64,000 nucleotides of DNA from a phage, in sequence record PZ445440.1; one strand, written 5' to 3'. The notes beneath the pieces are model-generated. The model ran no database searches, was not told the origin of the DNA, and saw nothing but the letters and a program-made list of their open reading frames with translations. Made by a program: the position numbers and the translations under genes. This document shows positions 1,867 through 35,713 of this stretch, piece by piece; position 1 is the stretch's first letter, and each line of letters starts with the position of its first letter.

Positions 1867-3849
1867 ATGGCACTTCTCTCTCCGGGCGTTGAGCTCAAAG
1901 AAACTACTGTACAGAGTACGGTAGTTAATAACTCCACTGGTACTGCTGCCCTGGCTGGAAAATTCCAATGGGGACCGGCATTTCAGATTAAACAAATCAC
2001 CGACGAAGTTGCGTTGGTTGATATGTTTGGTACTCCTAACACAGACACCGCAGATTATTTCATGTCTGCTATGAACTTCCTTCAATATGGTAATGACCTT
2101 CGTGTTGTACGCGCTGTTGATCGTGATACTGCTAAGAACTCATCTCCTGTGGCAGGAAACATTAATTTTACTATTTCTTCGGCTGGCACCAACTACAGAG
2201 TCGGTGATAAAGTTGTAGTTAAATATTCTACAGATATTATCGAACCGGACGGTGAAGTTACTTCAGTCGATTCTGACGGTAAAATTTTGAATATCTTTAT
2301 TCCTTCAGGTAAAATTATCGCTAAAGCGAAAGAAATCGGCGAATATCCTGAATTAGGTTCAAACTGGACTGCCGAAATGTCTGGGTCTTCTTCTGGCCTG
2401 TCTGCAGTAATTACTATTGATTCTGTTGTAATGGATTCTGGTATTCTGTTGACTGAAGTTGAAACTTCAGAAGAAGCTATTACTTCTCTAACTTTCCAAG
2501 AATCTATTAAAAAATATGGCGTCCCAGGCGTAGTTGCTCTTTATCCTGGCGAACTTGGCGACCAGCTCGAAATTGAAATCGTATCTAAAGCAGACTATGA
2601 CAAAGGTGCTTCGGCCCAGTTAAAAATTTATCCTGATGGTGGTACTCGTGCATCTACTGCTAAAGCAATCTTTGGGTATGGCCCACAGACTGATGACCAA
2701 TATGCAATTATCGTTCGTCGCAACGACGCGGTAGTCCAGAGCGTAGTTCTTTCTACTAAACGTGGTGAACGCGATATTTATGGTAGCAATATCTTCATTG
2801 ATGATTTCTTTGCTAAAGGCGCAAGCAATTATATTTTCGCTACGGCACAAGGTTGGCCAAAAGGTTTCTCTGGCGTAATCAAACTGAATGGTGGCTTATC
2901 ATCTAATGAAACGGTTGAAGCCGGTGATTTAATGGAAGCTTGGGATTTGTTTGCTGACCGTGAATCGGTTAATGCACAGTTGTTTATTGCTGGTTCTTGT
3001 GCTGGTGAATCTTTAGAAGTTGCTTCTACAGTTCAGAAACATGTTGTAGCAATTGGTGATTCTCGTCAAGATTGCTTGGTTCTTTGCTCACCGCCACGTG
3101 CAACTATAGTCGGTATTCCTGTTAATCGTGCAGTTGATAATCTGGTTGATTGGCGTACAGCGTCAGGAACTTACACTGATAATAACTTTAATATAAGTTC
3201 TACTTATGCTGCTATTGATGGTAACTATAAATATCAATATGACAAATATAACGATGTGAATCGTTGGGTTCCATTAGCTGCTGATATCGCCGGTCTTTGT
3301 GCTCGAACAGACAATATTTCTCAGCCTTGGATGTCTCCAGCCGGTTATAACCGCGGACAAATTCTTAACGTTATTAAGCTTGCAATTGAAACTCGTCAAG
3401 CACAACGAGATCGTTTGTATCAGGAAGCTATTAACCCTGTTACTGGTACCGGTGGTGATGGATATGTTCTGTACGGTGATAAAACTGCCACTTCTGTTCC
3501 TTCGCCATTTGACCGTATTAACGTACGTCGTTTGTTTAACATGGTTAAAACGAACATTGGTTCAGCATCCAAATATCGCCTATTTGAATTGAACAACGCG
3601 TTTACCCGTTCTTCTTTCCGTACAGAGACTTCTCAATATCTACAGGGTATTAAAGCTCTTGGTGGTGTATATAACTTTAAAGTTGTTTGTGATACTACCA
3701 ATAACACCCCAGCAGTTATCGACCGTAATGAATTTGTAGCTACTTTCTACTTACAACCTGCCCGCTCGATAAATTATATTACGTTGAACTTTGTAGCAAC
3801 AGCAACTGGCGCTGATTTCGACGAACTGATTGGTGCTGTAGGTGGCTAA
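1867..3849 (+). CDS. 18: Contractile tail sheath protein gp18
   Basis: 660 aa, length and position as T4 gp18; SD AAGAGGA upstream. Confidence 0.95.
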   Translation: MALLSPGVELKETTVQSTVVNNSTGTAALAGKFQWGPAFQIKQITDEVALVDMFGTPNTDTADYFMSAMNFLQYGNDLRVVRAVDRDTAKNSSPVAGNINFTISSAGTNYRVGDKVVVKYSTDIIEPDGEVTSVDSDGKILNIFIPSGKIIAKAKEIGEYPELGSNWTAEMSGSSSGLSAVITIDSVVMDSGILLTEVETSEEAITSLTFQESIKKYGVPGVVALYPGELGDQLEIEIVSKADYDKGASAQLKIYPDGGTRASTAKAIFGYGPQTDDQYAIIVRRNDAVVQSVVLSTKRGERDIYGSNIFIDDFFAKGASNYIFATAQGWPKGFSGVIKLNGGLSSNETVEAGDLMEAWDLFADRESVNAQLFIAGSCAGESLEVASTVQKHVVAIGDSRQDCLVLCSPPRATIVGIPVNRAVDNLVDWRTASGTYTDNNFNISSTYAAIDGNYKYQYDKYNDVNRWVPLAADIAGLCARTDNISQPWMSPAGYNRGQILNVIKLAIETRQAQRDRLYQEAINPVTGTGGDGYVLYGDKTATSVPSPFDRINVRRLFNMVKTNIGSASKYRLFELNNAFTRSSFRTETSQYLQGIKALGGVYNFKVVCDTTNNTPAVIDRNEFVATFYLQPARSINYITLNFVATATGADFDELIGAVGG

Positions 3850-3961
3850 TAAGACGCCTGATGGGCTATTTCGGTAGCCCATATAAATATAACTATATCG
3901 TTTAAAATTAATTCTATGGGCATCTGGTTAATCCTAAGCCCATATTACTACAGAGGCTAAT

Positions 3962-4537: not shown

Positions 4538-6109
4538 ATGAAATTTAATATCTTAAGTTTGTTTGCTCCATGGGCAAAAATGGACGAACGTGATTACAAA
4601 GACCAAGAAAAAGAAAATTTAGAATCTATCACCACACCAAAATTAGACGACGGCGCTAAAGAATACGAAGTATCTGAAAATGAAGCACAGCAAACATATA
4701 ATGCTATGTTTCAGAGAATGTTCGGTAGCCAAGAACCAGGGCTCAAATCAACGCGTGAATTAATCGATACGTATCGAAATTTGATGACGAACTATGAAGT
4801 GGATAATGCAGTCTCTGAAATAGTTTCCGATGCTATCGTATATGAAGATGATACAGAAGTCGTTTCTATAAATTTAGACAACACAAAATTTAGTCCAAAT
4901 ATCAAATCAATGATGTCGGATGAATTTAACGAAGTGTTAAATCATTTATCTTTCCAACGTAAAGGTTCAGATCATTTTAGACGTTGGTATGTGGATTCTC
5001 GAATTTTCTTCCATAAAATTATTGACCCTAAACGCCCTAAAGAAGGTATTAAAGAGCTTCGTCGTTTAGACCCACGTCAAGTTCAATATGTCCGTGAAGT
5101 TATTACAACCACTGAAGCCGGTGTTAAAATAGTCAAGGGTTATAAAGAATATTTCATTTATGACACATCACACGAATCTTATGCTTGTGATGGTCGCATA
5201 TATGAAGCTGGCACAAAAATAAAAATCCCTAAAGCCGCAATTGTTTATGCCCATTCTGGTTTAGTTGATTGTTGTGGTAAAAATATCATTGGTTATTTGC
5301 ATCGGGCTATTAAGCCGGCGAACCAATTAAAACTTCTTGAAGATGCCGTCGTAATTTATCGTATTACTCGTGCTCCTGATCGTCGTGTATGGTACGTTGA
5401 TACAGGTAATATGCCTTCAAGAAAAGCAGCAGAACATATGCAACATGTTATGAATACGATGAAAAACCGTATTGCATATGATGCTACTACAGGCAAGATT
5501 AAAAACCAGCAGCATATTATGTCGATGACCGAAGATTATTGGTTACAACGACGTGATGGTAAAGCAGTAACAGAAGTTGATACATTACCGGGTGCAGATA
5601 ATACTGGAAATATGGAAGATGTACGTTGGTTCCGTAATGCGCTTTATATGGCTTTACGTATTCCTATTACCCGTATTCCAAGTGACCAAGGTGGTATACA
5701 GTTTGATGCTGGTACTTCTATTACACGAGATGAATTGTCGTTTGGTAAATTTATTCGTGAGCTGCAACATAAATTTGAAGAGATATTCCTAGACCCGCTT
5801 AAAACTAATTTAATTCTTAAAGGAATTATTACAGAAGACGAGTGGAATGATGAAATAAATAATATTAAGATAAAATTTCATCGGGATAGTTATTTCTCGG
5901 AATTAAAGGATGCTGAGATTCTGGAGCGTCGTATTAATATGCTTCAGATGGCCGAACCATTTATTGGTAAATATATTTCTCACAGAACAGCTATGAAAGA
6001 TATTCTTCAGATGTCTGATGAGGAAATTGAACAAGAGGCTAAGCAAATTGAAGAAGAGTCGAAAGAGGCTCGTTTCCAAGACCCCGACCAAGAACAAGAG
6101 GATTTTTAA
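4538..6109 (+). CDS. 20: Portal vertex protein gp20
   Basis: 523 aa; strong similarity to recalled T4 gp20; late promoter at 4502-4509. Confidence 0.95.
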
Positions 6110-6345
6110 TGGACGATTTAATTCAAGCTATTAAATCAAACGACCTCGTTGCTACTCGAAAGTTTTTTGAAAGTGCAATGGCAGAAAAAACGGTTCGTTT
6201 GATTGAAGCACGCAAAGCAGAAATCGCTTCTCAATTTTTGATTGAAGGCGAAGAACCTGAAGAAGAAAAGAAAGCTAAAGCTTCGGAAGACGACGCTGAT
6301 GAAGGCGATGACGACGAAGACGAAGATGATGAGGACGATGAATAA
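6109..6345 (+). CDS. 67: Prohead core protein gp67 (acidic C-terminal D/E tail)
   Basis: 78 aa, poly-D/E C-terminus, position between 20 and 68. Confidence 0.8.
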
Positions 6346-6770
6346 TGTATCTTATCCCTGAATCTTATGAATTGGTACTCGAAAATGTCGAAGCACTTAT
6401 TCCTGAAGCACAGGGCCGAATCGATGCATTGTCTTCTGCTCTCGATATTGACGATATAAATACTATTATCGAGAACATGCTTGAAACTGAAACGGATTTA
6501 GCTGTTGCAATGGCTTCCATTATTAATGAAGAACAGTTAAATGAGTTTATCGTTAAACATGTTTCTTCTCGTGGTGAAGTCACCCGCACTAAAGACCGTA
6601 AAACTCGTGAACGTAACGCGTTCCAAACCACTGGTCTTTCTAAAGCAAAACGTAGACAAATCGCTCGTAAGGTCGTTAAAGCTAAAAAAGCTAACCCTTC
6701 AGGCCAAGTTAAAGGCTTGCGTAAGCGTAAAAAGGCTCTTAAACGTCGTAAAGCATTAGGATTAAGCTAA
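6345..6770 (+). CDS. 68: Prohead core protein gp68
   Basis: 141 aa, basic C-terminus, syntenic with T4 gene 68. Confidence 0.8.
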
Positions 6771-7411
6771 TGAATAAACCCGAGTTACTTATTGAAACTT
6801 GGGGTCAACCCGGTGAGATTATTGATGGCGTTCCAATGTTGGAATCTCATGATGGAAAAGATTCTGGCTTAAAACCAGGGCTTTATATAGAAGGTATTTT
6901 TCTTCAGGCAGAGGTTGTTAACCGAAATAAACGTTTATATCCTAAACGCGTTTTGGAAAAAGCAGTAAGTGACTATATTAAAGAACAAGTCGCAACCAAA
7001 CAAGCCCTTGGAGAATTAAACCATCCACCTCGCGCAAATGTTGACCCTATGCAAGCCGCTATCATTATTGAAGATATGTGGTGGAAAGGAAACGATGTAT
7101 ATGGACGCGCTAGAATTATTGAAGGCGACCATGGTCCCGGCGATAAATTAGCTGCTAATATACGAGCTGGTTGGATTCCAGGTGTTTCCTCTCGTGGTCT
7201 TGGTTCTTTAACCGACACCAATAAAGGGTACCGTATCGTGAACGAAGGATTTAAATTAACCGTCGGTGTAGATGCCGTATGGGGACCTTCTGCTCCAGAT
7301 GCTTGGGTTACTCCTAAACAAATATCAGAATCAGAAAATTCGGTGGAAACCACCAAAAACAGTGCTGATGAAGCATTTAAAGCTCTCGCAGAGAGTTTAA
7401 AAGCATTATAA
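6770..7411 (+). CDS. 21: Prohead core protease gp21
   Basis: 213 aa, syntenic; start overlaps stop of 68. Confidence 0.9.
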   Translation: MNKPELLIETWGQPGEIIDGVPMLESHDGKDSGLKPGLYIEGIFLQAEVVNRNKRLYPKRVLEKAVSDYIKEQVATKQALGELNHPPRANVDPMQAAIIIEDMWWKGNDVYGRARIIEGDHGPGDKLAANIRAGWIPGVSSRGLGSLTDTNKGYRIVNEGFKLTVGVDAVWGPSAPDAWVTPKQISESENSVETTKNSADEAFKALAESLKAL

Positions 7412-25520: not shown

Positions 25521-25550
25521 ATAGTATCACACATCCATGTGTTTGTAAAC
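25521..25550 (-). promoter_or_regulatory. T4-type early promoter
   Basis: reverse complement GTTTACAAACACATGGATGTGTGATACTAT. Confidence 0.55.
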
Positions 25551-27637
25551 TATCCTTGGACAAATTTAAACGGAACCGATTCTAAATCCATTAAAGACGC
25601 TAACAATTTCAATCCTTTAGGAGCACTAGTTTTTTCTACAAATGAGGAGAACGATACCGGCTCATCTGATTCGATTTCACCCGTCATAGCAACCACCTCG
25701 CCTGTTTCCATGAGAACATCACCATCGTAAATGACAGCTTCATCCAACTGGTCTGAGGACATAACTTCAGCTTGAATAAATTTAAGGTTAGATTCTAAAC
25801 CTGCACCAGTGTCAGATGACGCATCTGTAATTTTATTTATCTGCAAGAGAATGCCTCTAGGCAAAATAATTTCTTGCTCATTAGGGTGATTACTCAACTG
25901 TCCCGGATAAATCACGTTAACTTTATGAGCGCCATCAATAGCCCATCCAACGTTAACACGGATTTGTTCTGGCGCATGCATAGCTGTTCTTACTTGACTA
26001 GGAGAAATAGTAACACCTTCGTCGTTATTGTCAATGTTAAGCTCTTTGCGAACTTCTTCAGGAGCAAGTCCAAGGGCAACGTTCTCTTTAAACCCGCCGA
26101 AAATAATAGGAGCTAGTGAAGTGGAAACATAGTTTCTGAAGTAGAATACCTTATTTTTAACCATTGCTTCGTAAATAGGCATTCTGATAGACTGAGCTCT
26201 ATATAACGTTAGTCCTTCAGGTAAACGGTCTCCATTTAAAAACGCAGAATCAAGACCATCAATAGCGCGTTTAACTTCATCTTCATCCGCAACATCGTAA
26301 AAATCTGGTTTATAACGACCTAACAACATATTATTGATATCGGTATACGCAGAAGAGGCATATTCACGAATAGCTCGTTTTTCAGCAACAGAGTATTGTT
26401 TAGGGTCCCGATTCATTGTTATATTAAAGGTGCCTCTAGCCGATTCTCGTGCATAAGTATACATCACATTAGACAAGAACGCTGATTTACGTTGTTTCCA
26501 AGTTTTTTCAGATACTTCAGCTAAAACATCGTCGGCCAGTTGGAAATTATCACGTCTAAAATCTTCAAACCATTCGTCTCTAATAGAGTCTGCAATTTCG
26601 TTTGCAGCTTCAACAAAAGCAGCTAATGCTTTAACAGATGTTGTTTTTTCAGTTTTAATTTTCTTAGCAAACTTTTCTAAAGCCGGCTTAATAACACTAC
26701 CATAAGAAACTTCATCAGCAAATCTAAAGGATTCATCAATACGATTATAAATCTTATTTTCGATATCAGCAACTAAAGTGCCTTTTGCTGTGGATGATGC
26801 TTGGGCTAGTACGATTTCATATGCTTCAGGAAGTAATTCGGCTGTAGCCGGGCCACTAACTTCTTTAGCAGAATTTTCGTATTTCTGGAATAACTCACCT
26901 TCTTGGCGGTCAGCTTCTAAAGATTGACTTGCTGCAATAGCACGACGAGAAATTTTAGTACGAGCAATAACAGGCTTATCTTTACGTTTTTCTTCTACAG
27001 CAGCAATAGAACCAGCGATAGCCGTTTCTTTAGTGACTTTTTCGCCGGTCTTTTTACTCACATAAACTTCGCCAACATCAGAATCTACTTTCGCGTACAA
27101 CTCTGTGTTAATGTTAGGGATGCCTTTAATATCTTCAATGTTGGCATTTTTACGAACCATCATCACATAGGTGTGTTTACCTGTGAATTGATACATTGCC
27201 GACAATACTTTAAAACGACCACCGGTTTTAGTAGAAACTAAACGAGCAAGAAGAGTTTGAAGTTGTTGTCCACGTCCTTTCAATTTCTTGGTAGGGAATC
27301 GGAACAGAACCGCATCCATACGAAGAGCTTTAACCTGTTCATATACTGTATTGAAAATGGTGTTGATTGCATCAATAGGAGCAGGACCAAGGCCGTTTTT
27401 CAATTCAGCGAGATTACCCTTTTCAGACAGACTCATAATAACAACATGAGCGTATTTGTCGCCAAGTTTAACTTGTTTTACAGCATCGCCTTCAGAAAGG
27501 TAAGAGAATAAACGAACTACAATATTTGTATCAACATCACCAATTTTCCAGACTTGTGGAACTTTAGCTTTAGGGTTCAAATTGACGACAGGAAGACTGC
27601 CTTCAGATTCAAACACTTCATTTAATTGTTCAGACAT
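25550..27637 (-). CDS. alt: Alt ADP-ribosyltransferase (packaged, modifies host RNA polymerase)
   Basis: 695 aa; synteny with T4 alt; candidate R/S-T-S/E motif around FRNYVSTSLAP. Confidence 0.85.
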   Translation of the reverse strand: MSEQLNEVFESEGSLPVVNLNPKAKVPQVWKIGDVDTNIVVRLFSYLSEGDAVKQVKLGDKYAHVVIMSLSEKGNLAELKNGLGPAPIDAINTIFNTVYEQVKALRMDAVLFRFPTKKLKGRGQQLQTLLARLVSTKTGGRFKVLSAMYQFTGKHTYVMMVRKNANIEDIKGIPNINTELYAKVDSDVGEVYVSKKTGEKVTKETAIAGSIAAVEEKRKDKPVIARTKISRRAIAASQSLEADRQEGELFQKYENSAKEVSGPATAELLPEAYEIVLAQASSTAKGTLVADIENKIYNRIDESFRFADEVSYGSVIKPALEKFAKKIKTEKTTSVKALAAFVEAANEIADSIRDEWFEDFRRDNFQLADDVLAEVSEKTWKQRKSAFLSNVMYTYARESARGTFNITMNRDPKQYSVAEKRAIREYASSAYTDINNMLLGRYKPDFYDVADEDEVKRAIDGLDSAFLNGDRLPEGLTLYRAQSIRMPIYEAMVKNKVFYFRNYVSTSLAPIIFGGFKENVALGLAPEEVRKELNIDNNDEGVTISPSQVRTAMHAPEQIRVNVGWAIDGAHKVNVIYPGQLSNHPNEQEIILPRGILLQINKITDASSDTGAGLESNLKFIQAEVMSSDQLDEAVIYDGDVLMETGEVVAMTGEIESDEPVSFSSFVEKTSAPKGLKLLASLMDLESVPFKFVQG

Positions 27638-27692
27638 AGTGTTTTCCTTTTAGTAATAATTTATATTTATGCCAAAAAGAGCCCGAAGGCTC

Positions 27693-27902
27693 TTAATCCA
27701 CAATCGGGAGCAAAGTACGATAAACTTCAAAATTAGGGCCTTTTTCGTACTTATCGAAATTGTCCATAAAAATATGATAGGAATCGTTATTAGGAAAATC
27801 TAATATAATCTGAGAGCAAGAGGTGGAAACATCTCCACCATCCTTCTTAGCTACAATAACTGTTTCTAAATAAGCTTTCATTATAAACCTGTCTGGGACC
27901 AC
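27693..27902 (-). CDS. Hypothetical protein, 69 aa
   Basis: small ORF between ligase and alt. Confidence 0.45.
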   Translation of the reverse strand: MVPDRFIMKAYLETVIVAKKDGGDVSTSCSQIILDFPNNDSYHIFMDNFDKYEKGPNFEVYRTLLPIVD

Positions 27903-29374
27903 GGTCCAAATACGTCTTCAAACGAATCCGCTTCTGTTTTATCAAAACGGAACCCTTTAATAATTGGGAGGAAAATACCTACAGTGCCTTCACGGCCTTT
28001 AGAATGAACCCAACCATTACATTCACAATCAGCAATACGTCCAATTAATTTACCTTCACGAGCTTCGGTCATTAATCGTTCACGGTCTAAATCATGACGC
28101 TCGTCTAAAGGAATAAGAACCTTTACACCATCAACTGTTTTATGAGTTGTATCTTTAAACCCTGAACCACAATCGGTTGTAATACGACGACAACGTGATA
28201 CGAGTTCGACACCACCTAATTTGTTAGGGTCTTTAGAGTGTTCATAGTATCCTACAACTTCTAAAGCGATATCAATAACTTCTTTAAATTTAATTAGGTT
28301 CTTAGAACGTTTGTTTTCCCAATATGAATCACGGTTTTTAAGGATAATACCTTCAAGACCTTGGTCAACATATTTTTTATAAACCACTTTAGCTTCGTCA
28401 AGATTACGAACTAACTGATTTTCAATTGGCTCAATTCGTTTAAAGCCTTCAGCCATATTTTCAAGAGCAGCAAAACGAACATCATATTTCTGACCTTTAA
28501 TTTTGCCATCAGAATAGACTTCATCTAAAGGAACATAGTCCCAGGCTTGAAGAACCATACCTTCCGCTTCTTTAGGAGAAATAGTCCCTTGAAGAGATTT
28601 ATTTGCTAAACCATTTGAAGTGCTACGGTCTGCAACTTGTACTTCTTCGGATTCTTCATTATCACCAAATAAGAACGACAGGTCATTTCCTGAGCTCACA
28701 GCCTTTTTAATATCAAATGAATGGTAAACTAATTCACCGTCGATTAAAACCCCATTAGGGTGTCTTTCACGAGCTTCTTTAGTCATTTCCATTAGTTCAT
28801 CCGCTAATAGAGTAAGACCATGGTATTCGTTACCGGCACGAGAAAAGAATTGAACACCATCATCGCGAACTTCAGCGAAACAACGAGCACCATCGGCTTT
28901 TAATTGAGCAAATGCGGGCCATTTAATATTTTTAGTAATCAATTTCTCATCGTATGCAGATGCTAACATCTGTGGCTGCAATTGAATAAGTCCAGGCCAC
29001 ACCTTATTCGCGATAGACACTGAAGCACCTACTTCAAGGTCGCGCATCATTACACGACGAAGGACTTCTACATCGTCAGGTTTACCGTCAGCGATATAAC
29101 CCATGAGCTCTTTAATTGCAGCATTACCGGTGAGTTTACGAGTGGCTAATGTGAACTCAATAAAATCCAACATGTCATCTAATTCAAGAAGACCATACGC
29201 TTGAGACCTTTCACCTGGTCCTGGCCATTTCTTAATATAATACTGGATACCGCGTGCATATGTTAAACGATACACACGTTCAAGTAATTTATTGTCCTTA
29301 TTTTTCTTAAGGATTTCTTGTTTTGTTTTAGTAGAACCGATCGCAGCTATTTGGTTTAAAATATCTAAAATCAT
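27881..29374 (-). CDS. 30: ATP-dependent DNA ligase gp30
   Basis: 497 aa; KADGAR adenylation motif; T4 ligase-like. Confidence 0.95.
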   Translation of the reverse strand: MILDILNQIAAIGSTKTKQEILKKNKDNKLLERVYRLTYARGIQYYIKKWPGPGERSQAYGLLELDDMLDFIEFTLATRKLTGNAAIKELMGYIADGKPDDVEVLRRVMMRDLEVGASVSIANKVWPGLIQLQPQMLASAYDEKLITKNIKWPAFAQLKADGARCFAEVRDDGVQFFSRAGNEYHGLTLLADELMEMTKEARERHPNGVLIDGELVYHSFDIKKAVSSGNDLSFLFGDNEESEEVQVADRSTSNGLANKSLQGTISPKEAEGMVLQAWDYVPLDEVYSDGKIKGQKYDVRFAALENMAEGFKRIEPIENQLVRNLDEAKVVYKKYVDQGLEGIILKNRDSYWENKRSKNLIKFKEVIDIALEVVGYYEHSKDPNKLGGVELVSRCRRITTDCGSGFKDTTHKTVDGVKVLIPLDERHDLDRERLMTEAREGKLIGRIADCECNGWVHSKGREGTVGIFLPIIKGFRFDKTEADSFEDVFGPWSQTGL

Positions 29375-29640
29375 TTGATGTCCTCGATTTTGGTTACGGT
29401 TCTATTATAAGCCACTTCATCTAGAAGCGATTTCAGCGTTTTCTGATAAGTGGTAATCCATTTACCAAGCCCTTCAACGTAGTATTCTGAAATGTAGATG
29501 AACCCTTGTTCAACACACTCTTTAAATATTTCTGCGTCTTTTACTGAACGAAACAATGGCCGGTCTCGAAAGAACATGTTAACGTGACCGTAGTCACGTG
29601 TGGTATTTTTGCCATCTGTAATATCATGAACTACAAACAT
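29371..29640 (-). CDS. Hypothetical protein, 89 aa
   Basis: start/stop coupled to ligase. Confidence 0.5.
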   Translation of the reverse strand: MFVVHDITDGKNTTRDYGHVNMFFRDRPLFRSVKDAEIFKECVEQGFIYISEYYVEGLGKWITTYQKTLKSLLDEVAYNRTVTKIEDIK

Positions 29641-29649
29641 AATTAACCC

Positions 29650-30474
29650 TTAACAATTTATAGACCAAGTCCATTTAGACGAATCTAAAGGAAAGTTTTG
29701 AATCGTCCACCACGGCTGCATATCAGTTGGTCCTGGGGTTCGCCAGGTATATGGAGTACGTGTTGTCGAGGGGCCACCAATTTGATTAGGCCATGCGCCT
29801 GGACTTGTTGCACCAGATTCTTTAAGCAAATCAGCCAATCGTTTTAAAAGGTCTTCACGATCTGAATCTGAATTATGCCCAGGTGGAACCAAACGAGATT
29901 CAATATCATCCCACGTGTGTACACGTTGTGCAGTGCGAGGAATATCATCACGTTCACCACGAGCCAACCAATAAATCGGTACATTGAGAATTTCTGCCGC
30001 ATGGTCACAGTGATGAGCTAAATCGTCAACGTAACAAATCACGTTATATTTTGTTTTAGCTAGTTCAAATAATTGTTCCTTTGAAGAATCATGTCCACAC
30101 ATCATTACTTCAGAAAAGGCGCCTGGGAACAAAGCATTCAAATTAAATTGTCTATTCAATCGAGCATCAATTGAATCACCTAGCGCCGTCACGGCTACAA
30201 AATTATAGTCTTCTTTTAGTTTATTGATAACTCGAAGAGCATCCGAATAAGGCGCTAAGTAACGAATAAAATCAGAGCGATTATATTTTTCTATTAATTG
30301 TTTACCAAGGTTATCGTCGGTATTGAACAGTTTACCAGGAGAAATAAATTTTTCGTCCTGAATCATTTTTAAAATATGTTCTAATGGAAGGTTATATTTT
30401 TGGGCAAAATAAGGAAGTCCAGATTGCCAGCTTAAACATACACCATCAATATCAGTCAAAATAGTAGGCTTCAT
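29650..30474 (-). CDS. HAD-superfamily phosphatase-like protein (DxDGV motif I), Trp/Pro-rich C-terminal tail
   Basis: N-terminal ILTDIDGVCL matches HAD motif I. Confidence 0.6.
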   Translation of the reverse strand: MKPTILTDIDGVCLSWQSGLPYFAQKYNLPLEHILKMIQDEKFISPGKLFNTDDNLGKQLIEKYNRSDFIRYLAPYSDALRVINKLKEDYNFVAVTALGDSIDARLNRQFNLNALFPGAFSEVMMCGHDSSKEQLFELAKTKYNVICYVDDLAHHCDHAAEILNVPIYWLARGERDDIPRTAQRVHTWDDIESRLVPPGHNSDSDREDLLKRLADLLKESGATSPGAWPNQIGGPSTTRTPYTWRTPGPTDMQPWWTIQNFPLDSSKWTWSINC

Positions 30475-30938
30475 AGAGAATCTCTTAATAGGTTTAACAC
30501 ATTAATAAATTCAGCTTCGGTTAGTATTGTATCATCTTTTGTTAGACCACTAGCCATGCTGTGCTTCAAAACTTTTCCTTTCGAGGCTTGTAATGCATCA
30601 CGAAAGCCCTTGTTTTGGATCGCTGCTTCAAAATATGCATTTGTGTATAATTCTTTCCACGCTTCGGAGTATCTTGAAAATGGAACTCCTAACCAGAAGA
30701 GAGTCCCACGGTCCTGAGCTCTTGCATAAGACCTTCCAGCTTGTTGGGCGGCAAGCCCAGATAACCCAAATATACGTCTTTGTTGTTCAACATTTTTCAC
30801 CTTGCATCCTTGGAGAAATCCTTCAAGACCTCCAAATTGAATACCATCCATAACGAAAGGCCATTGAGCAAAGTTACTTAATGCACATGACGGCCACTTG
30901 AAATTACTTCTTATTTCTAATTCAGACATCTTTAACAC
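30471..30938 (-). CDS. YbiA/NADAR-like (DUF1768) protein
   Basis: LSNFAQWPFVMDG resembles the FSNFAAWP signature of E. coli YbiA as recalled. Confidence 0.55.
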   Translation of the reverse strand: MLKMSELEIRSNFKWPSCALSNFAQWPFVMDGIQFGGLEGFLQGCKVKNVEQQRRIFGLSGLAAQQAGRSYARAQDRGTLFWLGVPFSRYSEAWKELYTNAYFEAAIQNKGFRDALQASKGKVLKHSMASGLTKDDTILTEAEFINVLNLLRDSL

Positions 30939-31140
30939 TTATAATTTCAACATCAGCCCAATGACCGTATCCAGGTATACGGTCTTCGATAGATAAATTT
31001 CCATCATTTTTAGGCATTTTAATTGACGTAACGTATGGTTCTAAACGGTTTTCTGCATAATATGGAAAAACGTCAGTCACACGATAAGTAACTTCGATCA
31101 TTTCTGTACCAAACAATTTCTGCATCAGTTTCTTAAACAT
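30922..31140 (-). CDS. Hypothetical protein, 72 aa
   Basis: ORF in compact early operon. Confidence 0.45.
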   Translation of the reverse strand: MFKKLMQKLFGTEMIEVTYRVTDVFPYYAENRLEPYVTSIKMPKNDGNLSIEDRIPGYGHWADVEIISVKDV

Positions 31141-31141
31141 A

Positions 31142-31336
31142 TTATCCTCGCTTTAAACATTTGATTACAGACAGTTCTTGGCTCATGCGGACGTCTTCAG
31201 TTCCATCAACCCACAGGACTGCATAGGCTTCTTTAATTACATTACCGTTAATTTTAAAAGCAGGTAAAACCTTTGAAATCATTCCGGGGATACCTATACC
31301 TTTTAACTGGACAGTTTGTGATAAGAATAGTTGCAT
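31142..31336 (-). CDS. Hypothetical protein, 64 aa
   Basis: ORF in compact early operon. Confidence 0.4.
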   Translation of the reverse strand: MQLFLSQTVQLKGIGIPGMISKVLPAFKINGNVIKEAYAVLWVDGTEDVRMSQELSVIKCLKRG

Positions 31337-31623
31337 TAGAACCTCATCTGAAATCCGTGTGATTTAACATTACCGCCATAGATGTCAGAGGTATTGACTT
31401 CACGTGCGGCGCTAGGGTCGATATTAATATCATGGTTGAGCTTAGTGATTGCTAGGGTATCACGACCGTTAACAGTACGGAATTCTACCGGGCACACAAC
31501 ATCAGCATAAGCCTTAATGGATTCACGAGTAGGTTGTTTGTCGACAGGAACGTCTTTACCTGCTTTAGAGAAAACAACTTCACAGAAATTTTTACGGGTA
31601 TCAAAATAAGTGGTCATAAACAT
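31336..31623 (-). CDS. Hypothetical protein, 95 aa
   Basis: start moved to MFMTTYF after GAGGAAAA; longer track ORF would read through hairpin 31639-31654. Confidence 0.45.
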   Translation of the reverse strand: MFMTTYFDTRKNFCEVVFSKAGKDVPVDKQPTRESIKAYADVVCPVEFRTVNGRDTLAITKLNHDINIDPSAAREVNTSDIYGGNVKSHGFQMRF

Positions 31624-31638
31624 AATATTTTCCTCAAA

Positions 31639-31654
31639 GGAGGCCGAAGCCTCC
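31639..31654 (-). terminator. Hairpin GGAGGCUUCGGCCUCC
   Basis: GC stem, UUCG loop; possible terminator or RNA stability element. Confidence 0.5.
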
Positions 31655-31664
31655 ATTTTTAAGA

Positions 31665-32030
31665 TTAGATATCGAATTCGTTCAGAACTACATCAAAGAT
31701 TGCTTCCAGGTGTTCAGGTTTAGCTCGGTTACTCAGGATATGACGAATCCAAGTTTTAACCAGAAGTTTACGATTAACACCGTTCCAGCAAGGATGAGTA
31801 CCTAAATCACGTTGACGGAAATCGTCATCTAATGCAATTTTGAAGTTGGAACCTTCCATCGTGATTGAAACCGTGATGCCATTTTCAAATCGCATATAAA
31901 CGTAATTAGGAGTCATATACTGCTCAATTTCACATACTGAACCATTTTTATGCTTCCACAAACAAACCGTATCGATAGAACCAGCGATACCGTTAGAAAC
32001 GTATTTGCGTTCGAAGTTGGTGTAGTTCAT
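31665..32030 (-). CDS. Hypothetical protein, 121 aa
   Basis: start moved to MNYTNFERKY after GGAGAATAAA; early promoter just upstream. Confidence 0.45.
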   Translation of the reverse strand: MNYTNFERKYVSNGIAGSIDTVCLWKHKNGSVCEIEQYMTPNYVYMRFENGITVSITMEGSNFKIALDDDFRQRDLGTHPCWNGVNRKLLVKTWIRHILSNRAKPEHLEAIFDVVLNEFDI

Positions 32031-32103
32031 TTTATTCTCCAGATGTTTAAGTTGTTTGTTGGTACAGGTATATAATAACATATCCTGTACCAAAGTAAAT
32101 ATT

Positions 32104-32475
32104 TTATTTGATTTTTGTCCACTTAGCTGAATCAATAACACCTTTTGCTTTAATCTTCTCGATTAATGACTCTGCGCGATTTCTGGCATTTTCGTACCAT
32201 ACAACATCTTCAGAGTAACCAGTTTCTTCATCTTCGTAAGTTTTAGAACGAATACAGCCATAAACTGTAGAATTCAGACGGTAAATTTCACCGGTGAAAA
32301 AGTTTTCGATTTCGATATAATAACAAAAATCGTCTGAAGGGCCATCAGGAGTTGTACAATAAACCACATCACCTTGAACTGAACGAACCATCCACTGTAA
32401 CTCGTTAACAACTTGAGATTTATATCCATCATGGTCACGGCATTTAATTGTAGCATTTAAATTGATAATGTTCAT
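32104..32475 (-). CDS. Hypothetical protein, 123 aa
   Basis: GGAGAATAAA RBS; early promoter 32517-32545. Confidence 0.5.
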   Translation of the reverse strand: MNIINLNATIKCRDHDGYKSQVVNELQWMVRSVQGDVVYCTTPDGPSDDFCYYIEIENFFTGEIYRLNSTVYGCIRSKTYEDEETGYSEDVVWYENARNRAESLIEKIKAKGVIDSAKWTKIK

Positions 32476-32516
32476 TTTATTCTCCGGCTGTTTTATTGAT
32501 TAGATGGTACAAGTCT

Positions 32517-32545
32517 ATAGTAACACATCCTACAGGAGAGTAAAC
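32517..32545 (-). promoter_or_regulatory. T4-type early promoter
   Basis: reverse complement GTTTACTCTCCTGTAGGATGTGTTACTAT. Confidence 0.55.
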
Positions 32546-32580
32546 ATCTTTTTAAACTTTTTCTGCCCTAAACGCACAAA

Positions 32581-32598
32581 AGGGAGACCGAAGTCTCC
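32581..32598 (-). terminator. Hairpin GGGAGACUUCGGUCUCCC (RNA from - strand), identical to the gene 23 terminator
   Basis: exact 18-mer repeated at 9856 and 47584. Confidence 0.6.
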
Positions 32599-32604
32599 CT
32601 AAAA

Positions 32605-32784
32605 TTATGCAACAACCTTTCCAAAACGAGAAGCATCATCTCGAAGAACTGCACGTGCTCTGCGCATGATCTTCTCAATGGTTTGATTAATACGAGAGTT
32701 CGACCCACGCTTGTATCCAGCGCGTTTAGAGGTACCATCAACTTTCTTTTCAACTGCTTTCTTTGCTTTAGCTTGTTTTGCCAT
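32605..32784 (-). CDS. Hypothetical small basic protein, 59 aa
   Basis: hand-translated MAKQAKAKKAVEKKVDGTSKRAGYKRGSNSRINQTIEKIMRRARAVLRDDASRFGKVVA; not in ORF track; no clear SD, so tentative. Confidence 0.35.
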   Translation of the reverse strand: MAKQAKAKKAVEKKVDGTSKRAGYKRGSNSRINQTIEKIMRRARAVLRDDASRFGKVVA

Positions 32785-33078
32785 TATAAATTCTCTTTAA
32801 ATGAAAATGCAGGACTTATTGACATTGCCTGCGCAAGCCCTCAAGGGGAACATAGGTTTTGGATATTTAACGACAGGATAACCATAAACCCGTCATCATA
32901 CCAACCACGACTTAGACAGATAACCTTTTTCTGACGCGTGATAGTACAAAATACATTCAAGAGGTACACCGTAAAACTGCCGGGGCCTTAAAACTATAAT
33001 GATTCGCAAATCATTAATCAGACAGTTCGACGGCTCCTCGATTTTCTAGCCGCACTAAGGTAGCGAATCACCTAAAAC

Positions 33079-33327
33079 TTATTTAAGGGTAATAACAAAA
33101 TGACGTACTGCTTTACGAGCTGCAGAAGCCAAAGGCTTAGCATATTTCAGTTCATCTTTTGCTTCCAGTTCAGAAGCCAAAGCTGCCTGTACCGGGTTCA
33201 GATGTTTGAAATAACGCAGGATTTCCAGTGCTTCGGCTTCAACATCAATTGACGCGCCGTAGTTTTCGTGACCGTTATTCCATGCGTTTCGTTGCAGTTC
33301 AAGAGCGTGTTGTAATTGTTTAATCAT
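33079..33327 (-). CDS. rIII: rIII lysis-inhibition accessory protein
   Basis: 82 aa, near-identical to recalled T4 rIII (MIKQLQHALELQRNAWNNGHENYG...). Confidence 0.9.
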   Translation of the reverse strand: MIKQLQHALELQRNAWNNGHENYGASIDVEAEALEILRYFKHLNPVQAALASELEAKDELKYAKPLASAARKAVRHFVITLK

Positions 33328-33451
33328 TTTAAATTCTCAATTCGAGATAATATTTAGTAGCCACGTTCGTCTGAATTTCACCTTCTTTCGACAAGTCTCT
33401 CAGTTGTAGGCTACCGCTTAGAAGAGTGTTCTCTTCATATAGTTATTTATA

Positions 33452-33784
33452 TCACTTATAAAGACACGGAATAGCTTTATAGTGGCATGTTACGAATTTC
33501 TGTTTAATTTCTTTAGGTTGTTTAAGTCCCAAAGCCACAAATGGATGTGGAACATTTCGAATTTGTCCAACTGGTAGTGGAGTCAAATCACCGACTTCAA
33601 CAAAACCTTCAGGAACATCAGGACCTACAGAATGAACTACACATAGTTCAGGAACTTCACCTTGAACACGTTTACCAATCACGAGTCCTGATTCGGTAAC
33701 TTCTTCATCACCTGCTTGAGCGGGTTCAGAAACCAGAATGACATATTCACCAACAGCACGAATTGGGAGTTGTACTTCAGACAT
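33452..33784 (-). CDS. 31: gp31 co-chaperonin (GroES analog)
   Basis: 110 aa, near-identical to recalled T4 gp31. Confidence 0.9.
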
Positions 33785-34150: not shown

Positions 34151-34721
34151 AAAAGTTTCGGATTTGTTCCCAATTCAGAGAACGAAGATTATTACGAGAG
34201 TACTGAATTACTTCAATACCAGCTTGTTTAAGAATGTCTGTCCAATTTTCAGGAGACCGGTCATATAATTCTGCATATACAACCTTTTTAATGCCTGACT
34301 GTGTGATAGCTTTAGTGCAATCAGGACACGGAGAAAGCGTAGTATATAACGTAGCACCTTCAATAGAATTACCTTTACGAGCAGCAAACAAAATTGCATT
34401 CAATTCCGCATGGATTTCGTTATTAGCAGACCATGCACTATGAGCGGCCCGATGTTCTTTAGCCAAAACAAAATTATCTGCCCGTCCAAATGCTGTAGTG
34501 CCTTCTTTATGCCCAGCAACGATGACCGGGCTTGGTTTATTCTTCAACCAACCTTGTTCGGTAGCATGGTCACAACAGTTTGTACCACCTGAAGGAGACC
34601 CATTATAACCCGTAGAGATAATGCGCCCATCTTTTTCAATGACGGCACCAACTTTCCATGAACAACATTTTGATTCTTGAGAAATCAAATAAGCAATTTG
34701 AAGATATGTGCTAGCTTTCAT
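34140..34721 (-). CDS. cd: dCMP deaminase
   Basis: 193 aa; zinc-binding HAE and PCxxC motifs; matches T4 Cd. Confidence 0.9.
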   Translation of the reverse strand: MKASTYLQIAYLISQESKCCSWKVGAVIEKDGRIISTGYNGSPSGGTNCCDHATEQGWLKNKPSPVIVAGHKEGTTAFGRADNFVLAKEHRAAHSAWSANNEIHAELNAILFAARKGNSIEGATLYTTLSPCPDCTKAITQSGIKKVVYAELYDRSPENWTDILKQAGIEVIQYSRNNLRSLNWEQIRNFCGE

Positions 34722-35713
34722 TATTGAACCTTATTAATATAAGTTAACAGCTCTTTAGTTTGTTCCCAACTGATGCACGCATCGGTAACGGAAACGCCAT
34801 AGGACATATTATCAGAAATTTTTTGATTTCCTTCATGTAGGAATGATTCTATCATAATTCCTTTGACCAAATCATTAGCTGCTAAATTTTTACCAATACC
34901 AATTTGATTGCTATAATGCCCATCAGCGTTTGCATGGCTACAGTCAACCATTACATAATGATTCAGACCTACTGCCCTTGCTTTGTTAGAAGCTTCTTGA
35001 ATATCAGAAGAATGATAGTTCGGGCCGTTGGTCCCGCCACGCAATACGATATGCGTATTCTGATTACCTTCAGCTTCAACAATGCCTACAGTACCATCGA
35101 CGTCCATACCCATATACCGATGAGGCCAGGCGGCACTATACATCGCGTCTGTAGCTACTTTAATAGAACCATTAGTTGCGTTCTTGAAGCCTACGCACAT
35201 CGGTAGACCTGAAGCAATTTCACGATGTGTCTGACTTTCAGTCGTACGGGCGCCAATAGCAACCCATGAGAAAATACCAGAAAGATACTTAATCGTGAAT
35301 GGGTCTAATACTTCAGTTGCTAATGGAAGTCCCATACGTAGAAGTTTACGACACAATGTTCGTGCAACTATAAGTCCGTGGTTCATATCAAAACTTCCGT
35401 CAAGATATGGATCATTTACAAGACCTTTCCAACCTACGGTAGTTCGAGGCTTTTCAAAATAAACGCGCATCACTAACAGAACATTAGGAAGACGAGTTTG
35501 AAGTTCAGCCAGACGTTTGCCGTATTCAACAGCAGCAATAGGGTCATGAATTGAACAAGGACCTACAACAATAAGTTTGCGTGGGTCTTCACCGTTCATA
35601 ATCGAATTAACTTGTTCGCGATGAGAAGCCACTTGTGAGGCGTAAGCTTCCGACAAAGGAATAATCTCGGCCAGTTCTTTTGGAGAAATAAGTTTTCCGA
35701 CGACAGGTAACAT
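34721..35713 (-). CDS. 3-deoxy-D-arabino-heptulosonate-7-phosphate (DAHP) synthase, class I (AroF/AroG-like)
   Basis: 330 aa; motifs GPCSIHD, MRVYFEKPRTTVGWKGL, GARTTESQTHRE, VGFKN, VDCSHAN, EGNQ, YGVSVTDACISWE; stop overlaps cd start (TAATG). Confidence 0.85.
   Translation of the reverse strand: MLPVVGKLISPKELAEIIPLSEAYASQVASHREQVNSIMNGEDPRKLIVVGPCSIHDPIAAVEYGKRLAELQTRLPNVLLVMRVYFEKPRTTVGWKGLVNDPYLDGSFDMNHGLIVARTLCRKLLRMGLPLATEVLDPFTIKYLSGIFSWVAIGARTTESQTHREIASGLPMCVGFKNATNGSIKVATDAMYSAAWPHRYMGMDVDGTVGIVEAEGNQNTHIVLRGGTNGPNYHSSDIQEASNKARAVGLNHYVMVDCSHANADGHYSNQIGIGKNLAANDLVKGIMIESFLHEGNQKISDNMSYGVSVTDACISWEQTKELLTYINKVQ

Follow-up and report, generated by a model that had tools for sequence, protein, structure and literature searches.

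On its sequence, the minus-strand gene at 30471..30929 of the 64,000-nucleotide window (the whole stretch of DNA that was analysed) is the orthologue of phage T4 gene 30.3, now called adfN, in Escherichia phage ChristianSchoenbein (BASEL phage Bas46, MZ501056.1, genus Mosigvirus), to which the window is 100% identical. We consider it very likely that its product is an anti-DarTG1 guanine-ADP-ribose DNA glycohydrolase like T4 AdfN. The anti-DarTG1 function of gene 30.3 is already known, having been published down to the Bas46 phenotype, and no new mechanism is learned from the Bas46 gene. In the explanation that we favour, the host DarT1 toxin would ADP-ribosylate guanines in replicating phage DNA, and AdfN would hydrolyse the N-glycosidic bond between guanine and ADP-ribose on that DNA. 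This hydrolysis would free ADP-ribose and restore the base, so that replication could continue in hosts carrying DarTG1. The target of AdfN would be the DNA, with no binding to the toxin.

Position of the gene and its homologues

The features referred to below are as follows; positions in the MZ501056.1 record minus 478 give positions in the window.

30471..30929, minus strand: adfN (gene 30.3 orthologue, bas46_0037), encoding a 152-aa NADAR-family predicted DNA ADP-ribosylglycohydrolase; its stop codon is at 30471-30473
30930..30938, minus strand: the extra codons GTG-TTA-AAG of the 155-aa open reading frame, probably untranslated
30822..30824, minus strand: codon GAA for Glu36, the catalytic glutamate by invariance, alignment with YbiA E48 and the T4 E36A mutant
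30801..30803, minus strand: codon AAG for Lys43, the catalytic lysine by invariance, alignment with YbiA K55 and the T4 K43A mutant
30561..30563, minus strand: codon CAC for His123, the phage-NADAR signature residue, replacing the YbiA-type Glu or DarG1-type Asp
30474..30518, minus strand: codons 138-152, forming the alpha-helix at the C-terminus, which the inactive RB69 allele has lost
29650..30474, minus strand: gene 30.2, HAD-superfamily phosphatase-like with a disordered C-terminal tail (context only)
25550..27637: Alt, 2.8 kb downstream of adfN

The first-pass annotation had described a 155-aa open reading frame carrying an LSNFAQWP...DG segment. Both are real: the minus-strand frame 30471..30938 has 155 aa when counted from GTG, and it includes ALSNFAQWPFVMDGIQF, the segment in question (quoted stretch ALSNFAQWPFVMDG). 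The start codon is a different matter, as translation is likely to begin at ATG 30929 (152 aa) rather than at GTG 30938 (155 aa). We prefer the ATG because the records MZ501056 (bas46_0037), T4 and RB69 all annotate it as the start, and because no other start suits the published E36/K43 numbering. This ATG and the stop codon of gene 30.4 overlap (ATGTCTGA), and at the other end the adfN stop codon overlaps the ATG of gene 30.2 (ATGA).

The homology of this reading frame to a known family is far above chance. The only Pfam match of its product is PF08010 (Phage_30_3, Bacteriophage protein GP30.3), over the full 138 positions of the model with E=5e-69 and a score of 231 bits where the cut-off is 36; the product also matches PHROG 652, a group to which no function is assigned. 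It shares 148 of its 152 residues (97%) with T4 gp30.3, and none of the four substitutions from Bas46 to T4 (K11R, E89P, M125I and N143D) is catalytic. By tblastn, adfN homologues occur in 1511 phage records; among the matches listed nearly all are T4-like (Straboviridae), with Escherichia, Klebsiella, Aeromonas, Acinetobacter, Vibrio and others as hosts. We aligned 91 homologues that are 35-87% identical to the query; E36, K43 and H123 are invariant in all of them, down to 35% identity. The bas46_0037 entry could be renamed AdfN, anti-DarTG1 DNA ADP-ribosylglycohydrolase, as could hundreds of entries in T4-like phage records that are now called 'hypothetical protein'.

Several distant homologues merit a record of their own. 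Those of Aeromonas phage 44RR2.8t.2 (locus 6001-6450), Klebsiella phage Lion_ER11 (6001-6450) and Ralstonia phage RSP15 (5995-6513), the last a member of another family, Ackermannviridae, lie within a tRNA cluster away from ligase and Alt. In Rhizobium phage AF3 (NC_070887.1 60401-60844) RefSeq annotates no CDS over what is clearly a gp30.3/NADAR homologue (38% identity, E=3e-22). The homologue in Klebsiella phage Roth21 (PQ657794.1 65848-66285; 43% identity) is labelled 'anti-CBASS protein acb1', probably a mislabel.

NADAR fold and the evidence for an anti-DarTG1 role

The protein had been called YbiA/NADAR-like at first pass, and a NADAR HMM search had been proposed as a check. Taken at the level of the single sequence that search is negative: Pfam NADAR (PF08719) finds no match to the single window protein at E<=0.1, phmmer of the single sequence against the PDB finds none at E<=10, and the PADLOC and NCBIfam models have no match to the window protein. 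As the single sequence misses the NADAR models, membership therefore rests on profile and fold evidence, and at this level the search is positive. The family profile built from the 91 homologues matches E. coli YbiA (PDB 2B3W) with E=0.0046, hhalign against YbiA gives a probability of 94.3% and E=9.6e-8, and 16 of the 91 homologues individually match PF08719, the best with E=1.5e-7. An AlphaFold2 model made with the homologue alignment (pLDDT 93.1, pTM 0.88) has the YbiA-like alpha+beta fold.

The residues expected of the family are in place. The Glu and Lys of the E-x-[FY]-x-Q-x-x-K motif are present as E36 and K43, aligning with YbiA E48 and K55 respectively, and H123, which lies in or beside strand 120-122 of the model, falls opposite YbiA E125 when one residue is added to the hhalign alignment. 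Replacement of this Glu by His is described in the literature as a signature of phage NADARs, or gp30.3 proteins. The model also has a helix at the C-terminus (138-151), and the protein is full-length at 152 aa. Together these data bear out the YbiA/NADAR-like assignment and support the prediction that the adfN product is a minimal, core-only NADAR-fold enzyme.

What such an enzyme might do is indicated by published work on the T4 protein. T4 gp30.3 was renamed AdfN (anti-DarT factor NADAR; gene adfN) by Johannesman, Carlson, LeRoux et al. (bioRxiv 2024 PMC11257639; Nat Commun 2025 PMC11825919), who traced DarTG1 resistance to the 3' portion of gene 30.3 through crosses of T2 and T4 with RB69. 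In the same reports T4 AdfN is both required and sufficient for overcoming DarTG1: T4 and T2 without adfN are sensitised to DarTG1 by about 4 logs, and T4 AdfN supplied ectopically rescues RB69 fully on hosts with DarTG1. Purified T4 AdfN removes ADP-ribose from DarT1-modified DNA, does not bind DarT1 and does not counter DarTG2 (PMC11257639, PMC11825919); E36A and K43A each abolish its function (PMC11257639). In vitro, T4 gp30.3 hydrolyses guanine-ADPr and not thymine-ADPr (PMC11125620; PMC12945103). A transposon screen found adfN to be conditionally essential on DarTG1 and dispensable on K-12 without DarTG1. DarT1 in uninfected cells is not neutralised by T4 AdfN (PMC11257639, PMC11125620), and it has been proposed in print that full AdfN activity needs a putative Tevenvirinae-specific factor or DNA context.

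From the orthology, the fold, the catalytic residues and the C-terminal helix, all of which are seen in Bas46, we infer that the Bas46 protein would act as the T4 protein does. The phages Bas35-Bas47, Bas46 included, are all reported to be DarTG1-resistant, Bas46 fully so, and the Bas46 AdfA has been reported as the non-neutralising Arg164 type (PMC11825919). Our comparison confirms this type: Bas46 AdfA (gp61.2 homologue, MZ501056.1 87354-88013, outside the window) is 69% identical to that of T4 and carries Arg at the site of the T4 His (R164 in RB69 numbering). Because its AdfA is this non-neutralising variant, AdfN is probably the principal or sole anti-DarTG1 factor of Bas46. For the same reason Bas46 is a convenient natural test case for AdfN, as the effect of losing adfN should show cleanly. 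The suggestion that this gene counters DarT-like toxins thus gains support from the T4 literature and from an orthologue with intact catalytic residues, and can be narrowed to DarTG1.

A different possibility is that the main substrate, or an additional one, is not DarT1-modified DNA, but rather ADP-ribosylated RNA (such as tRNA) or soluble ADP-ribose immune signals, with a role in RNA repair or signal quenching. Iyer et al. 2022 proposed that soluble ADPr derivatives are the substrates which phage NADARs prefer, all NADAR families are reported to remove G-ADPr from RNA in vitro (PMC12945103), and three of the six distant phages that we examined have their gp30.3 homologue within a cluster of tRNA genes. 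However, the tRNA clusters of T4-like phages are general accessory-gene regions, which makes location weak evidence, the T4 NADAR is not among the enzymes named as reversing cytidine-ADPr (PMC12945103), and the genetics link T4 adfN directly to DarTG1 and DNA ADPr. We therefore consider a principal role on RNA or signals improbable. Hardly any probability attaches to a role as a YbiA-type metabolic N-glycosidase clearing reactive riboflavin-pathway intermediates: AdfN and E. coli YbiA have the fold and the N-terminal motif in common, but identity is about 20%, AdfN has His123 in place of the Glu by which the YbiA family is defined, and adfN is dispensable on K-12 that lacks DarTG1.

Gene neighbourhood and divergence from T4

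The first-pass annotation placed the gene next to an Alt ADP-ribosyltransferase/ligase module and beside a HAD-type phosphatase, and drew a role in ADP-ribose metabolism from this clustering. The phosphatase is right at the level of the fold. By sequence gp30.2 has only sub-threshold matches to HAD models (Pfam, NCBIfam), and its profile against PDB sequences gives only noise; nevertheless D8, D10 and K132 are invariant and T96, D150 and D151 nearly so, corresponding to HAD phosphatase motifs I-IV, and on this combination of fold and motifs gp30.2 has the HAD phosphatase fold. Alt does lie 2.8 kb away, although 'next to' is loose, as four genes (those for gp30.2, gp30.1, DNA ligase and alt.1) intervene.

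T4, RB69 and Acinetobacter phage KARL-1 all retain the order 30.3-30.2-ligase-Alt, and adjacency of adfN and 30.2 persists out to Acinetobacter phages. Around the homologues of Aeromonas 44RR2.8t, Klebsiella Lion_ER11, Ralstonia RSP15, Rhizobium AF3 and Vibrio PG216, neither gp30.2 nor Alt is found within 6 kb. The arrangement is an inherited ancestral T4 gene order. As it is lost in several lineages, placement is not functional evidence, and we reject a functional cluster of adfN, Alt and the HAD protein as evidence because the order is absent around these five distant homologues. Co-occurrence is equally uninformative: gp30.2 is in 1440 records and AdfN in 1511, with near-identical sets of genera, and since both are near-core genes of T4-like phages this says nothing specific. 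A scan for sigma-70 promoters and terminators over 27600-33500 gave 21 promoter-like sites against 17.3+/-5.4 in shuffled sequences and so carries no information.

The location near Alt would be explained if AdfN were an eraser for the phage's own ADP-ribosyltransferases (Alt, ModA and ModB), reversing or limiting modification of host protein or RNA. In Bas46, T4 and Acinetobacter phage KARL-1 Alt is indeed 2.8 kb downstream, and according to Iyer et al. 2022 the NADARs of T4-like phages sit with ARTs in early regions and are expressed early along with them. Against this, besides the four genes between them, no Alt is present within 6 kb at four of five distant loci with an annotated gp30.3 homologue, and the Alt proteins of Bas46 and T4 share only about 42% identity as against 97% for AdfN, so that Alt and AdfN do not co-evolve. 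Moreover, reported NADAR activity is on nucleobase-ADPr (guanine in all tested families, that of T4 included, and cytidine in some), and activity on protein-ADPr is not described (PMC12945103, PMC11125620). We find this explanation very hard to credit, and a glycohydrolase acting on DarT1-modified phage DNA remains the reading that we prefer.

The conservation of adfN stands out from its surroundings. Between Bas46 and T4 (window 30471..30929 against T4 locus 3501..3959) the gene has pN 0.020 and pS 0.22; pS is 0.70 for the flanking genes, whose products have amino acid identities of 73% (30.2) and 54% (30.4), and 0.42-0.52 for other well-conserved genes nearby (gp31, 30.7 and rIII). The 29 nucleotide differences are unevenly spread, with 25 in the first 267 nt and 4 in the last 192 nt. 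These values fit strong purifying selection on adfN, and they suggest a relatively recent exchange of at least its 3' part between Tequatrovirus and Mosigvirus. T4 is annotated with an internal out-of-frame reading frame, 30.3' (window 30566..30793, minus strand), but in Bas46 a stop codon breaks this frame; 30.3' is thus probably no conserved gene, and because of this stop an overlapping reading frame is unlikely to be the cause of the low pS. In a further reading, which we hold to be unlikely, the factor that AdfN is proposed to need would be the translationally coupled gene 30.2, with its HAD fold and intact motifs, and, separately, adfN would be an inter-genus cassette recently exchanged under DarTG1 pressure, which its low pS would fit.

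Two further observations concern neighbouring genes. The NADAR homologue of Vibrio phage PG216 (locus 6007-6961) overlaps the beginning of a gene for an NT5C-type 5'(3')-deoxyribonucleotidase of the HAD superfamily, a second and independent adjacency of a NADAR and a HAD protein; apart from motif I, this enzyme is not significantly similar to gp30.2. Within the window, 34721..35713 (minus strand) encodes a 330-aa AroF/G/H-type DAHP synthase (TIGR00034, E=2.4e-128) directly after dCMP deaminase. The Bas46 record calls the gene only 'putative aldolase', and T4 lacks it at this position. It occurs in 213 phage records, among them those of Mosigvirus-like E. coli phages and of phages of Klebsiella, Serratia and Proteus, and many records already name it aroF.

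Comparison with known NADAR proteins

The cellular NADARs E. coli YbiA (PDB 2B3W) and that of Phytophthora (PDB 8BAU) are 19-20% identical to the Bas46 protein. The conserved Glu of the last strand of YbiA, E125, is His123 in AdfN, and the genomic context and biological role of YbiA and the Phytophthora NADAR are unlike those of AdfN.

DarG1 (the BC4488-type NADAR, for example of Geobacter lovleyi, PDB 8BAT) differs from Bas46 AdfN in several respects. Bas46 adfN has no adjacent DarT1 toxin gene, its neighbours being gp30.4 and the HAD-like gp30.2, with no match to PADLOC defence models. The protein lacks the N-terminal basic DNA-binding extension (152 aa as against 219 aa for DarG1), and it has His at the third catalytic position where DarG1 has Asp. 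T4 AdfN is also no substitute for DarG1 in uninfected cells (PMC11257639, PMC11125620).

RB69, which belongs to the same genus, Mosigvirus, and is more closely related to Bas46 than T4 is, has an inactive allele. Its gp30.3 is 97% identical to the Bas46 protein over residues 1-137, and the nearby genes 30.1, 30.2 and 30.8 are 98-99% identical to those of Bas46. However, insertion of a single T, which is absent from the adfN genes of Bas46 and T4, ends the RB69 protein at residue 137 with loss of the last 15 residues, and hence of the C-terminal helix; this truncation has been linked to the DarTG1 sensitivity of RB69 (PMC11825919).

T4 differs from Bas46 in its DNA as well as in this protein. 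The Bas46 record annotates a putative UDP-arabinose biosynthesis enzyme; the DNA of RB69, a relative of Bas46, contains arabinosylated hmC, and that of T4 contains glucosyl-hmC (PMC11257639). The four substitutions that distinguish the Bas46 protein from T4 AdfN are conservative or at the surface. In other respects the two correspond closely, as the genes have the same length and occupy the same place between genes 30.4 and 30.2, and E36, K43, H123 and an intact C-terminal helix are common to both proteins.
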